IMG/VR virus record: IMGVR_UViG_2529293041_000014
Source: a virus
Taxonomy: Duplodnaviria > Heunggongvirae > Uroviricota > Caudoviricetes
Reading direction: 5' to 3' (one strand)
DNA: 21,890 bases
Shown here piece by piece: positions 1 through 8,185 of the stretch. The notes under the pieces were generated by a model. It was not told the DNA's origin. It searched no databases and saw only the letters and a program-made list of their open reading frames with translations. Each line of letters opens with the position of its first letter. The first letter of the stretch is position 1. The position numbers and the translations under genes are program-made.

Positions 1-1131
1 TCAAATGACCAGTTTTTTCCATTCCTTACCGCGTGCGTCGTTGTAAATATCGGTCATTTTTTGATTCGAATGGCCTAGCAAAATTTTGGTATCAACCCCC
101 TGCTCTCTGAACAATCGCTCTGATAAAGATCTCTGCTCATGGAAAGAGGGAGGGGTGCCATTAGCACGCCAGTTGTAATCCACAGAATCCCGGGCTTTTT
201 TAAATGCAACGGTTAATGTTGCTGGCTTAACCATCCCGCCGCGCTTAGCTGTCCCTTTCGCGTGATGGTGGTGCAATAGCCACGGACTAAGAACGCAATC
301 GCGGCAGGATGACACCACATCATCCAGGGTGAGATTTAATTTATCGCAACGCAGAGCCAGAGGGATGGCAATCCGGGTTCCTGTTTTTTGCTGTTCGACA
401 TGAAGATAACCATCCCGGATATCCGAAAATTGCATTTTGCAAATATCTGAAAGGCGCTGGCCTGTCATCAGTGCCAGCAGCATACCGCGCTGTAAAAAGT
501 AACCATCCTTTTCCGCTGCGTTATAAATCATCATCCACTCATCAAAAGTCAGTCGCTGTCTTGATATCCGCACCTGCGGTTTTTTTGCCGATTCTGCAGG
601 GTTAAAGCCTGGCGGGACATCGCCCGTTTGCTGAGCTTCCCGGAAAACATCGATCAGTACTTTCCTGAAAATTTGTCCCATTCTGTTATGTCCTCTGGCC
701 TTGTACTCTTCCAGTACTGATACCACATCTTTTACGGTTATGGCATCTAACGGTCTGGTGCCAAAACGTTCATCAAATACCCTGAGAGGGGCCGCTTTCT
801 GTTTCAGCGTGTTGAGTTTGATCTCGCCGTTTTCATATCTTTCCTGTTGAATTTTTCTGTAATTATTCAGAAAAATGGTAACGGTTGATGAACCGCCGGT
901 ATCACTAATAATTTTCTCCTGCAGACTGAGCATTTGTTCCATTTGCTGCCGGGCAAGACGGCTGTTCGCTTCTGCTGCAATAGTTTCTGCCAGTTTCTGG
1001 TCAATACTGCCGAGACCGTGATTTTTGCCTGTTATGGGATGCCTGTAACGCCAGTAAACTTTGTTATTTCTTTTGTCAAAATACGGAGATAATCCCGGAA
1101 CATCGGTTTTATATTTTCGCGGGCGCGCCAT
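1..1131 (-). CDS. int: Phage tyrosine integrase (site-specific recombinase), complete; stop codon is at window positions 1-3
   Basis: 376-aa ORF; C-terminal catalytic region shows the tyrosine-recombinase pattern (conserved R, H-x-x-R in FHEQRSLSERL, terminal Y in TDIYNDARG); sits at the prophage edge next to an excisionase-like gene. Confidence 0.85.
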   Translation of the reverse strand: MARPRKYKTDVPGLSPYFDKRNNKVYWRYRHPITGKNHGLGSIDQKLAETIAAEANSRLARQQMEQMLSLQEKIISDTGGSSTVTIFLNNYRKIQQERYENGEIKLNTLKQKAAPLRVFDERFGTRPLDAITVKDVVSVLEEYKARGHNRMGQIFRKVLIDVFREAQQTGDVPPGFNPAESAKKPQVRISRQRLTFDEWMMIYNAAEKDGYFLQRGMLLALMTGQRLSDICKMQFSDIRDGYLHVEQQKTGTRIAIPLALRCDKLNLTLDDVVSSCRDCVLSPWLLHHHHAKGTAKRGGMVKPATLTVAFKKARDSVDYNWRANGTPPSFHEQRSLSERLFREQGVDTKILLGHSNQKMTDIYNDARGKEWKKLVI

Positions 1132-1357
1132 CTTCCAGTATCCTCTTCAAAGCAGGGTGATCTGTGGCGATCACCTCCGGCTTGTTTACCATTCCGACAA
1201 AGCGAGCTTGCGGATCCACTCGCCAGCGTCTTCCAACTTTTTTGGGGAGAGGAAATATCATTCCGGCTTTAGCGTATTTACTTAACGTACTCGGAGTTGG
1301 GACCGGTTCACTGAATTCCTCTTTTGCCCACTCAGTGAGCAGAATAAGTCTTGCCAT
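1109..1357 (-). CDS. xis: Excisionase-like small DNA-binding protein
   Basis: 82-aa basic ORF immediately upstream of int and overlapping its start by 23 nt, the usual xis-int arrangement; assignment by position and size, not by a recognised motif. Confidence 0.55.
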   Translation of the reverse strand: MARLILLTEWAKEEFSEPVPTPSTLSKYAKAGMIFPLPKKVGRRWRVDPQARFVGMVNKPEVIATDHPALKRILEDGAPAKI

Positions 1358-1421
1358 GAGCGTCGTTCGCTAATCATGGTCGCCGCCACTATAGCTGGTG
1401 GGCAACGACCGGGGTTGAACA

Positions 1422-3893
1422 TTAAAAATCAGCCTGATTCGGGATCAGTTTTTGCCAGATAACTGAAACGTATTTTGCTTGGTAACGGGCGTCATCAAGT
1501 GCATTATGGCGCTCACCTTCGAATGGAATAGCCGTTCTGGCATCGAAGTCTATGGCTTTCCCCAGCTCAACGATTGTGCGTACATCGCGATCGTTGTAGT
1601 AACGCCACGGGCAGGGGATCCCCTGCCGTTCGTATGAACGGCGCAAAATCGTGTTGTCGAAGTTGGCTCCATTTCCCCAGACCTGAACAAAAAATTCACC
1701 GGAGTTTTCGTCGATAAATTCCCGCAATTGTAACAGTGCATCATCTAACGGGATTTCATCGGTCATAATGGCAGATTGCGCTTCGCGTGATTGCTTAAGC
1801 CACCATTTAATGGTGTCCCGATCAATGACCCCGCCAGCAGTTTCCAGATCGATAGTCTTACTAAATTCCGGTCCCATATCTCCGGTTTGCGGATCGAAAA
1901 ATATTGCACCTATTGAGATGATCGGGGCATCAGGATTTTTTCCCATGGTTTCAAGGTCGATCATTAGATGGTCACACGTCCTGCTGGTGGATGTGATTTC
2001 GTGATGACCGTTCACCTTAATTGAGTGATCTGCCGTCTCGCCAGTTTCATTATCGCTATCGTGATGCTGATTGCCGTCAGTGTTCTCCTTGTGTGGATGT
2101 TCAGCGCCTTCCATTTCCTCCGGATCATCTTCCTGAACTTCAACCTGATACTCTTCATCGAATGTTTCCTGGTATGTTGCGTCGCCCATCACCGCGCCAC
2201 AATCAGGGCAGTTGCCGCCGCCGGTCTGACCGCAGGCGGTGCAGACTTTTTCCACTTCCTGTTGCGCCACTGGTTCAGGCTGTTTCGTTTCTGGCTCGTT
2301 TTGTAACGCATTTGGGCTGTTTTGTTCCGCTTTCTGGCCGTTCTGTTCCGTTTCTTGCTGGTTCTGATTCACTGAATCGCGGGTTTCAATCCCCTTCACC
2401 CATTTCGGATCATTCTGGTCGCTAATCCCTGCAACAAATTCTCCGCGAGAGGCAGCAAGCAACTTATCGGCGTCAGGCTGGCTGATATTGGCTGCCTGCA
2501 TAATTTTGTTTACTTCGTCAGCGGTAACTTTTACCGGCTCTGGTTGTGCGGTCGTGTCAGATGCACCAGTATTTTGTTGTGAACCTGAGTATGTACTGTT
2601 TTTGCGGGCGAAATATTCTTCTTTCGTGATTTCAGTAGCCCCGGCAGCCAGCGCCTTATCCAGACCAGAAAGTTTGTTTGCGCGACCGTATTTTTCGCCA
2701 TCCTTGTCGGTGAAGAGGAAGTAGAACGGCCCTTCACGCTCTACAGATGGTTCGACTTCCACTTTGCATTCGGTTTTTTCGTTGTCCGGAATTGCCGTTT
2801 CCACTGCATCAGTTTCTGGTACTGGCGACGAGAGAGTATCAGTTGCGCTCTGATTTCTTCCTTCATCTTCAAACACGCCCTTTGTAGTCAGGTATTCAGT
2901 AATGTATTTGTTCAGTGCCACAGGGTCTTTGTGAATGTCGATCGGACGTTCACGGACAAGGCCAAAAATAGTCTGGCGGTCGTAGCGAAGGGCATCAGGC
3001 TGTTTGCGCATTGATGCCGAGATACGCTTCCAGTCTTCGCGGTCGTTGTCGATAACTTCATTTTTTGCCCAGCGATGGATGCTGCCGTCAATGTTTCCGG
3101 CATCCACATCACCAGGCCAGAGAGCGTAGGCCAGTTCGTCATCCAGTGTTTTCCATGTCTGCTTGTATTCGCGATGAATGGCAGCAATGACCGGGCTGAT
3201 TTTTCCTGTTGAATTTTCAGTGTGCTGTTGATTGGCTCTGGCGCGGGCGAGATCAACAACAGACGTGTATTTTCCGGTTTCCTTGCGTTCACCTTCGCGA
3301 CGTTTTTTCCAGATGCGCATCTCTGCCTGAATTTCGGGCCATTTGGCACCAGGCTTACATTTATGCTTAACCCACCCGATGGCATGCAGCTTAAGCTCCG
3401 GATACATGGCGTTAACTTCTGGCATTTTCATCAACGCTTCAACGATATGTCCGTCGAATGTTGCCATGTCTTCCTGCAACAATTCCTGTGCGCTAATAAC
3501 CATATCAACGGTGATGTTTTCACATGTGTCGAACTTAACCATGACAGCGTTCGGTACTTCAGGGGCCAGCTTGTCAAAAGTGACGTTCATCGGATCTGAT
3601 TCAGTCTCAACCGGGACAAAGGAAGCAGACTCCTCATCCCAGCGGTTTTCCTGCATATATTCAGCATCCCAGGAATCGAGGGCAGGGCGGGGTATGCCGG
3701 GTTTATCCTCACAGACAATAAATTTATAAGCGCAGTCCTGAGCTGCAGGGAATTGCTCCAGAAATTGCCAATGAAATTTTGCGCGTGCGCGACGCTCATC
3801 ACCAGCTTCAATGGCAGTGGCCACCGCAACAGCGCTATCTTCTTTTATGGCCTGTTCATCAGGAATAGCAGCGCAAATAAAGACTTTACTCAT
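1422..3893 (-). CDS. Prophage exonuclease (in the exo/RecE position) with C-terminal DEDDh DnaQ-like 3'-5' exonuclease domain, acidic linker and CxxC-x7-CxxC zinc ribbon
   Basis: 823-aa ORF; Exo I/II/III motifs readable in the translation (IDLET with D646/E648, WGNGANFD with D746, HNALDD with H796/D801); zinc ribbon C551/C554/C562/C565; sits between xis and the dicB module. Confidence 0.7.
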   Translation of the reverse strand: MSKVFICAAIPDEQAIKEDSAVAVATAIEAGDERRARAKFHWQFLEQFPAAQDCAYKFIVCEDKPGIPRPALDSWDAEYMQENRWDEESASFVPVETESDPMNVTFDKLAPEVPNAVMVKFDTCENITVDMVISAQELLQEDMATFDGHIVEALMKMPEVNAMYPELKLHAIGWVKHKCKPGAKWPEIQAEMRIWKKRREGERKETGKYTSVVDLARARANQQHTENSTGKISPVIAAIHREYKQTWKTLDDELAYALWPGDVDAGNIDGSIHRWAKNEVIDNDREDWKRISASMRKQPDALRYDRQTIFGLVRERPIDIHKDPVALNKYITEYLTTKGVFEDEGRNQSATDTLSSPVPETDAVETAIPDNEKTECKVEVEPSVEREGPFYFLFTDKDGEKYGRANKLSGLDKALAAGATEITKEEYFARKNSTYSGSQQNTGASDTTAQPEPVKVTADEVNKIMQAANISQPDADKLLAASRGEFVAGISDQNDPKWVKGIETRDSVNQNQQETEQNGQKAEQNSPNALQNEPETKQPEPVAQQEVEKVCTACGQTGGGNCPDCGAVMGDATYQETFDEEYQVEVQEDDPEEMEGAEHPHKENTDGNQHHDSDNETGETADHSIKVNGHHEITSTSRTCDHLMIDLETMGKNPDAPIISIGAIFFDPQTGDMGPEFSKTIDLETAGGVIDRDTIKWWLKQSREAQSAIMTDEIPLDDALLQLREFIDENSGEFFVQVWGNGANFDNTILRRSYERQGIPCPWRYYNDRDVRTIVELGKAIDFDARTAIPFEGERHNALDDARYQAKYVSVIWQKLIPNQADF

Positions 3894-3985
3894 TTTGTTT
3901 TACCTCATTACAGATTTAAGGGTGAACAAATCCCTGCCATTGCTGGCATATAAGAATGAAACCGGATGTTTATTACGGAACTGTT

Positions 3986-4177
3986 TTAAAGACCTGCCGG
4001 GATTTCGTTATTATCCTGGTGAATAACTTTATCGACCGGGTAACAGTTACCGGGAATTTTCTGTTCGGTTGCTGCAGTCACACACTCCTGCATTGTCCTG
4101 TGAACACTGACTGCAATATCAACTGGCTCTCCGGAAACAAGAAAAACTGTCAGAACAAGTGCAAATGCTGTATTCAT
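3986..4177 (-). CDS. ydfD: YdfD-like small membrane lysis protein (Qin prophage family)
   Basis: Translation MNTAFALVLTVFLVSGEPVDIAVSVHRTMQEC... matches my recollection of E. coli K-12 YdfD (63 aa); hydrophobic N-terminus; ATGA start/stop overlap with dicB as in K-12; alternative in-frame start at 4186. Confidence 0.65.
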   Translation of the reverse strand: MNTAFALVLTVFLVSGEPVDIAVSVHRTMQECVTAATEQKIPGNCYPVDKVIHQDNNEIPAGL

Positions 4178-4362
4178 TGCCAGCATCCTTTTTGTATCGG
4201 ACGTAAACGGGCCAGCATTGAAAGAATGCATATTTTATTTAATAGCTCCCGTTCGTGTTTTCTCTTGTTAATGGCATCTTCAGTAAATACAGGGTTACTG
4301 ATAGTGACACCAATTTCAAAACAACCTTCAGACGTATTAACGTTTGGTAATAACGTTTCCAT
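4174..4362 (-). CDS. dicB: Cell-division inhibitor DicB
   Basis: 62-aa translation METLLPNVNTSEGCFEIGVTISNPVFTEDAINKRK...KGCWQ is near-identical to K-12 DicB as I recall it; internal Met of the 97-aa ORF with GAGGA RBS 9 nt upstream; DicF lies just upstream. Confidence 0.8.
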   Translation of the reverse strand: METLLPNVNTSEGCFEIGVTISNPVFTEDAINKRKHERELLNKICILSMLARLRPIQKGCWQ

Positions 4363-4530
4363 TATCGCGTCCTCAACAATGAATTTTGTGATGTGGTGCC
4401 TGGTGCCTCCAGGTGACGTTAACCAGTTAACAATTAACGCCGGATACAGAGAATCCACCCATAACACTGTTTTTGGTTTTAACTGTTCCGCGTGCGCTCA
4501 GCCGCATTCACCGCATCACAAAATTCACTT

Positions 4531-4589
4531 TAAAAACGGCGGCAGAGCAGTCACGGAGTAAAACTGATACCGCCAAACGTCACCAGAAA
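4531..4589 (-). ncRNA. dicF: DicF small regulatory RNA (Hfq-dependent; targets ftsZ mRNA among others)
   Basis: Minus-strand sequence UUUCUGGUGACGUUUGGCGGUAUCAGUUUUACUCCGUGACUGCUCUGCCGCC followed by a U-tract matches the known 53-nt DicF; correct position and orientation upstream of dicB. Confidence 0.8.
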
Positions 4590-4920
4590 ATTGATAACAG
4601 AGGGCGTTGCAGCGGGGTTGTCGCTTAAGCGTATGGTCAACCTGACAACCCGGTGTCCTCAACGGGGAAGGAATAACCCCGCCATACTTACCGCCGCGCC
4701 ATTTCGCGGAGTGCCACAACCGGAAGCGCACGGTCGAACTAAATTTAACGACACCGTACAGAGAGACCAATTTCGCCGTGCGCTTTCGCGTTATGCCCTG
4801 ACTTTTCAGGGACATATCCTTTCAGTAAACTGTCAGTGCCGGATGTTCACCCGTGTCCGGCGCACGCACTCCACCTGACCCGTGGAGAACTCCTTAATTA
4901 CCAACCCTCAGGAGGGTGAA

Positions 4921-5199
4921 ATGGATAAAAAGCAAATTGAGGCCCTGCAATCTATTATTGAAAAACAAGATGAAGCTATCAGGATTCTTTCATATCGCAC
5001 TGATATGATACTAAATATGCTTTCTGCATTAACGGCTGCGCTTGGTGGTACAAAAACAAACGTATACCGCGAAGTTGTTATTCAACAGATAGATAAATTT
5101 GAAAAAACCATACCAGGTATTAATGCTCATCTTGCAGAACAAGAGAAAGACCATGCTCTTATGGCAATTTCTTCAGTAGCTCTCCCGAAAGTTGAGTAG
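4921..5199 (+). CDS. Hypothetical protein (92 aa, predicted helical), encoded antisense to the surrounding leftward early operon
   Basis: ORF with a near-ideal RBS (AGGAGG, 6-nt spacer, ATG at 4921); no recognisable motif; convergent 41-nt overlap with the 3' end of the 5159-5572 gene. Confidence 0.45.
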   Translation: MDKKQIEALQSIIEKQDEAIRILSYRTDMILNMLSALTAALGGTKTNVYREVVIQQIDKFEKTIPGINAHLAEQEKDHALMAISSVALPKVE

Positions 5200-5989: not shown

Positions 5990-6409
5990 CTATGATGCGT
6001 TTTGTGCTTTCTTTTTACGGATTTCTTCGTAGATCATATTGTAATACTGTTTTTTCTCTTCAAGAGTTTTTAATAATTTATCCGCTTCACTTTCTGGCAG
6101 TTCGTCTAAGAGATCTAAAAAAATACGTTGTCGTGGCGTTAGAACCCTTGTTTCATAACTGGAGGCTGTGTTCGTTGATGATGAAACGATACCATCCATC
6201 CATCCCCGGGGTAACCCAAAGGACTCTTCGATAATCTCCACCATATCATCAGCGATCCGTTTTTTTCCCTTTTTCCCCTCTGGGTACAACATTCTTGATA
6301 CATAAGAAGGCTCGCGCCCGATCTTTCTGGCCACGTTAACCGCTTTACCATCGCATTTCTCATCACGAATTTTGATGAGTTGCTGTCGTCTAAATTCATA
6401 TTTGTCCAT
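5990..6409 (-). CDS. Phage repressor, cI/DicA-like HTH protein
   Basis: 139-aa ORF divergent from a Cro-like gene; C-terminal segment LDLLDELPESEADKLLKTLEEKKQYYNMIYEEI resembles the DicA C-terminus (LELFNALPESEQD...); flanked on both sides by operator-like palindromes. Confidence 0.7.
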   Translation of the reverse strand: MDKYEFRRQQLIKIRDEKCDGKAVNVARKIGREPSYVSRMLYPEGKKGKKRIADDMVEIIEESFGLPRGWMDGIVSSSTNTASSYETRVLTPRQRIFLDLLDELPESEADKLLKTLEEKKQYYNMIYEEIRKKKAQNAS

Positions 6410-6477
6410 AGGTAAATAATAGATGCGATTACCGCAAGGTAAACAACCTGTGGGTATTGACTTTTGTTTACCTGCGG
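6404..6477. promoter_or_regulatory. OR-like divergent promoter/operator region between repressor and cro-like gene
   Basis: Repeated TACC-N4-GGTA-type sites (taccgcaaggta at 6430-6441; degenerate copies gtccataggta at 6404-6415 and tacctgcgggtg near 6466-6477) in the 100-bp divergent intergenic region. Confidence 0.45.
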
Positions 6478-6509
6478 GTGTTCTTTGCTGTGTTTACTAA
6501 GGAGTAGCT

Positions 6510-6791
6510 ATGGAAGAATTAAGAATATTTCTCAATTCTCTTTCGTCAGATGAACAGCGTATGTTTGCATGCGAGTGTGGTACCAGCATCGGTTATCTAA
6601 GAAAGGCATTGAGTAAAGGTCAAGTGTTAGGGGCATCGTTATGTGTCCTTATTGAGCGAGCCAGTAATGGTGAAGTTACACGTCAGCAACTAAGGCCTTT
6701 TGATTGGATGAATATTTGGCCCGAGCTGGAAGATACCAAAACGTTAACACAACCACTTTCTAGGAGCTTGATTCATGAAAATCAAGCATGA
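6510..6791 (+). CDS. Cro/YdaS-like small transcriptional regulator
   Basis: 93-aa ORF with AAGGAG RBS, divergent from the repressor gene, followed by ydaT; position and size typical of a cro analogue. Confidence 0.6.
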   Translation: MEELRIFLNSLSSDEQRMFACECGTSIGYLRKALSKGQVLGASLCVLIERASNGEVTRQQLRPFDWMNIWPELEDTKTLTQPLSRSLIHENQA

Positions 6792-7200
6792 ACACATCCG
6801 CATGGCGATGAATGTCTGGGCGCATCCGGACGGCGAAAAAGTGCCGGCTGCGAAAATTACCAAAGCGTATTTCGAGCTGGGAATGACGTTCCCGGAACTG
6901 TATGACGACAGCCATCCGGAAGCCCTGGCCCGTAATACCCAGAAAATTTTCCGTTGGCTGGATAAAGACACCCCTGATGCTGTTGAAAAAATGCAGGCTC
7001 TGTTACCGGCGATCGAAAAGGCGATGCCGCCTTTGCTGGTGGCCCGTATGCGCAGCCACAGTTCTGAATATTACCGTGAGATCGTCGAACGGAGGGATCG
7101 GCTGGTGAAGGATGTCGATGATTTTGTTGCGTCAGCGGTTGTTTTGTATGACCAGATGAATCGCGGCGGCCCGGCAGGGAATGCTGTGGTGATGCACTAA
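6775..7200 (+). CDS. ydaT: YdaT-family protein (toxin YdaT-like)
   Basis: 141-aa ORF; N-terminus MKIKHEHI and C-terminal half (...IEKAMPPLLVARMRSHSSEYYREIVERRDRLVKDVDDF...) match the Rac YdaT family as I recall it; 17-nt overlap with the cro-like gene. Confidence 0.65.
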   Translation: MKIKHEHIRMAMNVWAHPDGEKVPAAKITKAYFELGMTFPELYDDSHPEALARNTQKIFRWLDKDTPDAVEKMQALLPAIEKAMPPLLVARMRSHSSEYYREIVERRDRLVKDVDDFVASAVVLYDQMNRGGPAGNAVVMH

Positions 7201-7222: not shown

Positions 7223-8185
7223 ATGAGCAGCAAGCTTCATGGTCTTGTCTGGGAAGGGTGCGCCTTCACCGGCATGATCTTATCCAGGGTGGCGGTTATG
7301 GCCCGTCTTGCAGACTACAGCAATGACGAGGGCGTGTCATGGCCTGCCATTGAAACTATCCGGCGTCAGATCGGTGCAAGAAGTGAATCCACAGTGAAAT
7401 CGGCTATTGCAGAACTGGCGAAAGAGGGCTGGCTGACGAAGGAAGAGCGTAAGGTCGGTGGGCGTAATGTAAGCAATATCTATCGGCTTAATGTGGAAAA
7501 ACTCGAAGCAGCTGCGGCGGCGGCGCGTGAGTCATATAAACCGAAAAGAAAAATTAGCCCGGCAAAAAATGACCCGTTAACAGTTGACCCGTCAAATATT
7601 GACCCCTCAACGGTTGACCCGTCAAATTTTGATGGATCAACTGTTGATAAAAAACTGCCGATTAGGGGGGCGATGATTGACCCCGATCCGTCAGTATTAA
7701 AACCTGATCCGTCAGATAAAAGATCTTCTTGTCCGGACGCTTCGCAACCGGACCCGCAGACGGCTGAACAGGATTTTTTAACCCGACACCCTGACGCGGT
7801 TGTGTTCAGTGCGAAAAAACGCCAGTGGGGAAGTCAGGAAGATTTGGTGTGCGCACAGTGGATCTGGGGACGAATCGTGAGTCTTTACGAGCAGGCGGCC
7901 AGCTATGATGGCGAGATCGCTAGACCGAAAGAACCCAACTGGACAGCATGGGCCAATGACGTTCGCACAATGCGGATGCTGGATGGCAGAACTCACAGAC
8001 AAATTTGTGAAATGTTTGGGCGTCTCCAGCGGGATTCGTTCTGGGTAAAAAACATCATGAGTCCGGCAAAACTCCGGGAAAAATGGGATGAACTGGTTAT
8101 CCGCCTGGGGCGTTCGCCTGCGCAGCGTTGCGTGAATCACATTTCTGAACCGGACACTGAAATTCCGCCGGGCTTCAGGGGGTAA
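7223..8185 (+). CDS. Replication initiation protein (lambda O-like / YdaU-like), with internal iteron repeats
   Basis: ORF of about 320 aa after the cro/ydaT pair; GGGGG RBS before ATG 7223 (the ORF could start at 7208); contains five 15-bp direct repeats encoding a (T/N)VDPS pentapeptide array, as ori iterons sit inside lambda O. Confidence 0.65.
   Translation: MSSKLHGLVWEGCAFTGMILSRVAVMARLADYSNDEGVSWPAIETIRRQIGARSESTVKSAIAELAKEGWLTKEERKVGGRNVSNIYRLNVEKLEAAAAAARESYKPKRKISPAKNDPLTVDPSNIDPSTVDPSNFDGSTVDKKLPIRGAMIDPDPSVLKPDPSDKRSSCPDASQPDPQTAEQDFLTRHPDAVVFSAKKRQWGSQEDLVCAQWIWGRIVSLYEQAASYDGEIARPKEPNWTAWANDVRTMRMLDGRTHRQICEMFGRLQRDSFWVKNIMSPAKLREKWDELVIRLGRSPAQRCVNHISEPDTEIPPGFRG
7570..7644. 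repeat. Putative replication-origin iterons: five tandem 15-bp repeats (TGACCCGTCAA core, partly palindromic) followed by an A-rich tract
   Basis: tgacccgttaacagt / tgacccgtcaaatat / tgacccctcaacggt / tgacccgtcaaattt / tgatggatcaactgt read directly from the sequence, inside the O-like gene. Confidence 0.55.

Follow-up and report, generated by a model that had tools for sequence, protein, structure and literature searches.

RecE, together with its partner RecT, is a mainstay of recombineering, although a function is known for no more than one third of the RecE protein. This study concerned the gene that occupies the corresponding position in a 21,890-nucleotide (nt) stretch of DNA from a tailed virus (IMG/VR record IMGVR_UViG_2529293041_000014; the whole stretch is called the window here), and which specifies a modular nuclease of 823 amino acids (aa). 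The gene is the final one of a leftward early operon, ahead of xis and int, a slot that is taken by exo/bet in lambda and by recE/recT in Rac. In this position, and in the homologous architecture of its N-terminal part, the window protein resembles Rac-type RecE, but its nuclease domain is of the DEDDh class and presumably acts 3'-5', whereas that of RecE is of the PD-(D/E)xK class and acts 5'-3'; its gene is not followed by recT, lar and ydaC; and its head domain is YdfE_N rather than PF06630. As judged from sequence comparisons, aa 1-622 are a scaffold of the RecE/YdfE type, and the ~200 C-terminal aa alone have been exchanged.

A second relative is YdfE of the Qin prophage of Escherichia coli K-12, the namesake of the Pfam families YdfE_N and YdfE_C, which cover aa 1-345 of the window protein. 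The K-12 gene has ydfD and dicB as its neighbors, as in the window, and we take its product to be a truncated remnant of 306 aa, without the hinge and nuclease domain described below. A literature search on ydfE showed no functional study among the 20 of 32 papers listed.

The closest characterized relatives of the nuclease domain itself are DexA of phage T4, the structure of which has been solved, and its E. coli homolog EcD, which digests 5-hydroxymethylcytosine (5hmC) DNA (Kang et al. 2025, PMC12153337). Digestion of T4 DNA by EcD was reported, as was protection against this phage on expression from a plasmid (PMC12153337). Both share the DEDDh family and the catalytic residues with the window domain, which is 38% identical to EcD (E 2e-37) and 24% identical to DexA; they are stand-alone proteins of 227 aa (DexA) and 189 aa (EcD), whereas the window domain is the C-terminus of an 823-aa protein. 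DexA residues W152 and D169 correspond to Y766 and K780 in the window protein and to W and E in EcD, although the alignment around D169 is gapped and the K780 correspondence is less certain. The EcD family was recovered from IMG/VR by means of the primers published in PMC12153337 (189 aa, start MIDTET, A78), and the idea that EcD is a fragment of the 823-aa protein was rejected, as it is a separate 189-aa gene with 38% identity. The window gene is lambdoid, but EcD belongs to a P2-like prophage, where its neighbors in the early operon are a cox-like gene on one side and dam/gpA on the other, and is therefore also a phage early gene. One copy lies at 6401-6991 (minus strand) of locus L013, and the same setting was seen in L006 and L008-L011; the order in this operon is integrase, cox-like gene, DUF4761, EcD, Dam methylase, DUF4406 and GpA replication protein. 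The word 'prophage' does not occur in PMC12153337.

At the level of whole genomes, the closest described system is the 'Tritos' type of Rec module, characterized in a recent survey by a nuclease, by the lack of a single-strand annealing protein (SAP), a single-stranded DNA-binding protein (SSB) and an anti-RecBCD function, and by abundant Chi, with 7-21 top-strand sites (Zheng et al., Genome Res 2025, PMC12315714). Domain shuffling was left there as 'beyond the scope', and its main text contains no dissection of this protein. The gene is present in phage Tritos, a free phage genome record, with 94% identity at the DNA level and within an identical int-xis-gene-ydfD-dicB-DicF arrangement, without an annealase, and the window shows the same composition: a nuclease is present, and SAP, SSB and anti-RecBCD genes were absent in the scans. 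The gene is already catalogued, in database annotation and in one 2025 survey, and is a functionally unstudied variant.

Exchange of the nuclease domain on a RecE/YdfE-type scaffold

The C-terminal domain (aa 642-813, nt 1455-1970) matched the Pfam family PF16473 (Rv2179c-like) at 226.6 bits (cutoff 27; E 2.2e-67), the alignment taking in positions 2-177 of the 177 in the profile, and residues D646, E648, D746, H796 and D801 were invariant in an alignment with T4 DexA and EcD. A search of PDB sequences at E <=1 returned T4 DexA as the sole relative (8kel, E 1.5e-6; also 8ken). A preliminary description of this DNA, made without database searches, had proposed a DnaQ-like DEDDh exonuclease with Exo I/II/III motifs; the Pfam match and the five catalytic residues bear this out, and the homology of the C-terminus does not contradict it. 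A nuclease domain of the RecE type (PF12684, PDB 3h4r) gave no Pfam or PDB match in the 823-aa protein. To judge from its family, the C-terminal domain would hydrolyze DNA from free 3'-OH ends by two-metal catalysis, with a polarity opposite to that of RecE.

That this domain is an exchangeable part became evident from its relatives. With aa 1-638 as query, the matches were mostly proteins of 823-826 aa carrying YdfE_N, YdfE_C and PF16473, but they also included E. coli proteins of 900 aa that were 92-94% identical over aa 1-622 and ended in PF12684; the C-terminus of one such sister protein (P0098) matched PDB 3h4r, the nuclease domain of K-12 RecE, with E 1e-177. The swap is in frame, at aa 622/623 (nt 2027/2026). 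Compared with locus L004, which combines a YdfE head with the RecE nuclease, blastn homology extended from nt 4400 through dicB to nt 2027 and then stopped; compared with L015, which combines a Rac-type PF06630 head with the DEDDh domain, it covered nt 2448 down to nt 1412, ending 10 nt beyond the stop codon; and compared with recE of Rac-SA53, DNA homology was confined to nt 2474-2027. These boundaries delimit aa 474-622 as a hinge that is common to all forms and ends at ETGExA, with alternative heads on one side of it and alternative nuclease cassettes on the other. Each of the two heads was found with each of the two nucleases, the hinge being present in all four combinations, and at least two further C-terminal types without a Pfam match occur on the same scaffold.

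Several observations on these related proteins can be added. One of the extra modules is a phrog_7838 'exonuclease'-type C-terminus, which in L016/L017 (6001-8927; P0139) is followed by a Sipho_Gp157 gene, and the other is of the phrog_26058 type, both being without a Pfam or PDB match. Proteins with such modules (P0139, P0129, P0134, P0164, P0247 and P0126) may be the 'RecE-2' proteins said in PMC12315714 to be without a nuclease domain. A 703-aa protein, P0205, is a candidate for an in-frame RecE-RecT fusion: its Rac-type head and hinge extend into the zinc knuckle, of which the first half is kept, and continue directly into what appears, by eye from the alignment, to be the C-terminal part of RecT. 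It resembles the sbcA-type deletions, which we take to activate recET. Thousands of database entries are 'partial' forms of 630-657 aa that end near the swap junction (P0002, with 8328 members, P0031, P0056-P0066 and others), probably since draft assemblies break where several prophages of one genome share the scaffold and differ downstream of it.

The scaffold itself begins with the YdfE_N head, for which a confident alpha/beta plus helical model was obtained without a solved relative, followed by the YdfE_C domain, with weak similarity to RecE aa 295-368. The hinge comprises a helix segment (DADKLLAA..GISDPNDPKW), a Q/N/E-rich stretch, a zinc knuckle and an acidic linker, and aa 474-621 were 74% identical to aa 471-611 of Rac-SA53 RecE by BLASTP. 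Although the knuckle lies in a region of low confidence in the structure model, its four cysteines are kept in homologs of 43-76% identity despite variable flanks, so that it is not a chance pattern. The RecE equivalog model (NCBIfam PRK09709 / NF007259) aligned with aa 246-625, scoring 272.6 bits against a cutoff of 1269. As a family the scaffold is narrow, with 248 clusters (50% identity) found at E 0.001 among 1.84 billion representatives. The preliminary description had placed the CxxC-x7-CxxC knuckle exactly, and the long acidic low-complexity linker it reported is confirmed by composition (14-15 D/E and 0-1 K/R per 40 residues over aa 561-620). In setting the protein against RecE, however, it was right for the nuclease and not for the remainder, as knuckle, linker and scaffold are all of RecE type: the knuckle and linker lie inside the stretch of 74% identity, and the features thought to separate the protein from RecE are therefore RecE sequence.

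These relationships also explain how the protein has been named. The 823-aa open reading frame (ORF) is near-identical to WP_000048378.1, and is labeled by PGAP as 'exonuclease', '3'-5' exonuclease' and also '3'-5' exoribonuclease'. To which family the phage proteins annotated as exodeoxyribonuclease VIII belong could be answered: those of phages Tritos, mEp460_ev081 and PhiR42_1 are the same DEDDh protein, with a DNA match that is unbroken across the gene. In several deposited phage genomes, among them records OV696610.1 (Tritos) and PV340562.1, it is labeled 'exodeoxyribonuclease VIII' or 'exonuclease VIII, ds DNA exonuclease'. Given the score far below the equivalog cutoff, this name is a mis-annotation, carried over from the N-terminal region that the proteins have in common.

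Pairing with RecT and prevalence

The type of nuclease goes together with the presence or absence of recT. Annealase genes were sought by Pfam and PHROG scans of the early-left ORFs and by Pfam scans of most larger ORFs of the window, while the few remaining ORFs were covered by the RefSeq annotation of the ompW-adjacent prophage of E. coli O127:H6 E2348/69, which is 99.9% identical over window nt 1000-5000; this annotation applies to ~15.5 kb, the right third of the window being different. The RecT, Bet, Erf, Sak, Gam and SSB families were not detected in the window by these means, no recT, lar or ydaC lies between the nuclease gene and xis, and neither of the gaps flanking the gene (64 nt downstream, 92 nt upstream) contains an ORF. 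The preliminary description had stated that ydfD and dicB are the next genes and that an annealase is not adjacent, and both statements hold. It had regarded an overlooked ORF at 3894-4000 as the place to look for one, and none is there; from the order recE to recT, an annealase would rather be expected downstream (nt 1358-1421).

In L004 and L005 the order is dicB-ydfD-[YdfE head + RecE nuclease]-recT-lar-ydaC-xis-int, and in Rac-SA53 it is recE-recT, so that recT directly follows each of these PD-(D/E)xK forms. The DEDDh forms are directly followed by xis and int, as seen in the window and Tritos, in L015 (kilR-ydaE-[ExoVIII_N head + DEDDh]-xis-int, without recT), and in phage 606R7, in which the gene is divided between two ORFs and the layout from ydfD/dicB to xis/int is kept, again without an annealase. 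As recT co-varies with the nuclease type, the unit exchanged is either 'RecE nuclease + recT (+ lar, ydaC)' or 'DEDDh alone'. With regard to the features of SynExo systems, an adjacent annealase gene is absent, and a domain of the DEDDh 3'-5' class was the sole nuclease domain detected, its polarity being that predicted from the family.

The DEDDh form is widespread. Its 605-nt cassette was found (>=80% coverage) in 4055 of 5426 complete E. coli genomes (about 75%), at 8163 places and in up to 7 copies per genome, while the K-12-type RecE nuclease with recT was found in 1728 of the 5426, at 1841 places. The 90% identity cluster of the protein (P0001) has 23183 member sequences. In codon comparisons, the ratio of non-synonymous to synonymous substitution (dN/dS) was lowest in YdfE_N (0.11), similar in the middle part (0.20) and the DEDDh cassette (0.19), and higher in the disordered linker (0.5-0.64), the pattern that would be expected of a working multi-domain protein under purifying selection.

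Possible roles of the DEDDh form

We consider it probable, on balance, that the protein is a nuclease-only enzyme of the Rec module, which trims or removes 3' ends, is carried on a RecE-type scaffold, and leaves strand exchange to host RecBCD/RecA. The gene would be transcribed together with DicF, dicB and ydfD, as part of the leftward operon, giving a product in which the scaffold of ~620 aa is fused in frame at aa 622/623 to a DexA/EcD-type DEDDh domain. This domain, as its family suggests, would remove nucleotides from the 3' ends of DNA, and the N-terminal part, being shared between forms, may direct both kinds of nuclease to one common target, for which linear DNA ends, or intermediates of replication or recombination in the lytic cycle, are the most plausible candidates. 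As an enzyme of the predicted polarity cannot make 3' tails, and as an annealase is lacking, the protein is not a single-strand-annealing recombinase of the SynExo kind.

Several points weigh against such a role. According to PMC12315714, 3'-5' exonucleases usually inhibit homologous recombination. The founder of Pfam family PF16473, Rv2179c, is an RNase. The scaffold is without a recognizable DNA- or protein-binding fold, so that its function cannot be read from its fold, and its role in targeting is argued from conservation alone. Finally, the E2348/69 relative (~46 kb) has 5 Chi sites on the top strand and 2 on the bottom strand, which all lie in its early half, as against 7-21 top-strand sites in the Tritos class. 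The E. coli chromosome has about 1 Chi per 4.6 kb, and as the density in this prophage is similar, the Chi-rich hallmark of a RecBCD-dependent virus is not clearly seen.

The window itself has 7 Chi octamers (5 on the plus strand and 2 on the minus strand) in 21.9 kb, compared with 0.58 in shuffled sequences. The late genes of the E2348/69 relative have none. Chi enrichment was considered as support for a RecBCD-dependent lifestyle and was not used, given the lack of Chi in these late genes and the host-like density. Two of the window sites bracket the DEDDh cassette, one being 37 nt inside the swap junction and the other just past the stop codon.

The main rival reading is an EcD-like exclusion or defense nuclease of the HREX type, which would degrade 5hmC-type T-even DNA and spare unmodified DNA, thereby shielding the lysogen or the induced phage. 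The 38% identity of the domain to the EcD family, with the reported digestion of T4 DNA and protection by EcD (PMC12153337), speaks for it, as do the high prevalence of the gene, its copy number of up to 7 per genome, and its retention in defective prophages such as that of the window. Nevertheless, we think it unlikely. The gene lies deep in a repressible leftward operon, and a consensus scan, which is a weak test, found nothing promoter-like for the nuclease gene alone, leaving a private promoter that would allow expression in the lysogen unsupported. Neither of the residues to which 5hmC recognition has been ascribed is conserved (Y766 and K780, against W and E in EcD), PADLOC gave no match for the 823-aa protein, and the 620-aa RecE scaffold is left unexplained. 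EcD is itself part of a P2-like prophage early operon, and its defense role rests on plasmid expression.

A 3'-5' exoribonuclease acting on phage or host transcripts, or on small RNAs of the DicF operon, is a good deal less probable again. In its favor are the Rv2179c RNase from which the Pfam family takes its name, the '3'-5' exoribonuclease' among the PGAP names, and the position of DicF, encoded 650 nt upstream; but T4 DexA alone was returned by the PDB search (E <=1), the closest characterized relatives, EcD and DexA, are DNases, and on this DNA-recombination scaffold the domain takes the place of a DNA exonuclease. Least credible of all, and scarcely tenable, is that the protein is a true RecE (exodeoxyribonuclease VIII) ortholog or a decaying, functionless remnant: phage records carry the former name, homology to the RecE model is partial, and this copy lies in a prophage remnant without late genes, but the sub-cutoff equivalog score (272.6 bits against 1269) and the absence of a PF12684/3h4r-type domain effectively refute orthology, recT is absent as well, and decay is at odds with the intact frame, the dN/dS of 0.1-0.2, the 23183 members of P0001, and the presence of the gene in the viable phage Tritos.

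Setting in the window and implications for RecE-type proteins

The features of the window are collected in Table 1. DicF is ~650 nt upstream of the nuclease gene, and beyond it lie small ORFs without an assigned function and then a regulator gene (5990-6409), all on the minus strand. The window differed from the E2348/69 prophage by 16 mismatches over the first 12.6 kb, after which there is an indel, and its content diverges past ~15.5 kb. Lysis, head and tail genes are absent, and the window copy is therefore a defective prophage remnant.

Table 1. Coordinates of the nuclease gene, its parts and other features of the window
Feature	Position (nt)	Strand	Basis
int, integration beside ompW	1-1131	-	
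xis, downstream of nuclease gene	1109-1357	-	
Modular nuclease gene, 823 aa	1422-3893	-	phrog_2082 match over full length
Exchangeable DEDDh cassette (aa 623-823, with the stop codon and a further 10 nt)	1412-2027	-	
Acidic disordered linker, aa 566-622, ending at conserved ETGExA	2028-2198	-	composition; predicted local distance difference test (pLDDT) <50
Zinc knuckle CxxC-x7-CxxC, CTACGQTGGGNCPDC, aa 551-565	2199-2243	-	
Shared hinge, aa 474-622	2028-2474	-	BLASTP and blastn boundaries
Conserved 50-aa beta-beta-alpha-beta-alpha mini-domain, aa 385-434 (GPFYF...GRANK...EI(T/S)xEEYxARK)	2592-2741	-	
Helical domain, aa 233-345	2859-3197	-	Pfam YdfE_C PF27432
Head domain, aa 1-232	3198-3893	-	Pfam YdfE_N PF27430
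ydfD (DUF1482), upstream of nuclease gene	3986-4177	-	
dicB, upstream of nuclease gene	4174-4362	-	
DicF small RNA, in leftward operon of nuclease gene	4537-4588	-	Rfam RF00039, 72.5 bits
Chi sites	1394-1401, 1983-1990, 7035, 13177, 15183	+	
Chi sites	13583, 13635	-	
IS66-family element, three ORFs	15623-18238	-	
Orphan 289-aa ORF in 35% GC DNA	18288-19157	-	
Truncated tyrosine integrase	19813-20553	-	
OspG/NleH-like kinase	20970-21890	+	

Away from the early operon, an island of low GC content (9854-12010, minus strand; 33-38% GC, flanks ~50%) is bounded by a pair of Q-type antiterminator genes, at 9324-9857 and 14370-15059, with hokD at ~12351-12506 on the plus strand. Its three minus-strand ORFs, of 197, 142 and 363 aa, are without a Pfam match, and PADLOC gave a single marginal match (PDC-S54, E 0.0014). 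The island has the appearance of a moron or of a candidate defense cassette.

For the annotation of phages and prophages, the consequence is that the 'exodeoxyribonuclease VIII' label in deposited phage genomes overstates their recombination equipment, and correcting it alters the reading of recombination capacity in prophages, including Stx-converting and effector-carrying ones. The results also bear on two claims made in 2025. The first is that DnaQ-like nucleases belong to lambdoid Rec modules (PMC12315714), and the second that DexA-like nucleases are bacterial defenses, the tested EcD being a P2-like prophage early gene. To these are added here the in-frame nuclease swap at a fixed junction, the strict association of RecT with a single nuclease type, the finding that the DEDDh form predominates in E. 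coli, and the annealing-independent function of the N-terminal part that these imply.

With regard to this last point, the N-terminal part must act independently of single-strand annealing, since it stays conserved, and purifying selection acts on it, even where a nuclease of presumably opposite polarity has taken the place of both the RecE nuclease and RecT. A bolder proposal, which we put forward tentatively and do not hold to be the likelier outcome, is that the N-terminal 620 aa are an autonomous 'delivery platform' for interchangeable nucleases of opposite polarity, the DEDDh form being an annealase-independent pathway for DNA ends. At least two, and probably four, C-terminal types would then be served from the one junction, and the activity of the platform might be, for example, the binding of DNA ends or of a host factor (RecBCD, SSB), or DNA mimicry by the acidic linker. 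If this is true, the long-missing function of RecE's N-terminal part would be that of the platform, and the DEDDh form would be its commonest version in E. coli. The natural set of 2x2 chimeras, all with one junction, is a ready experimental design for the function of the N-terminal part.

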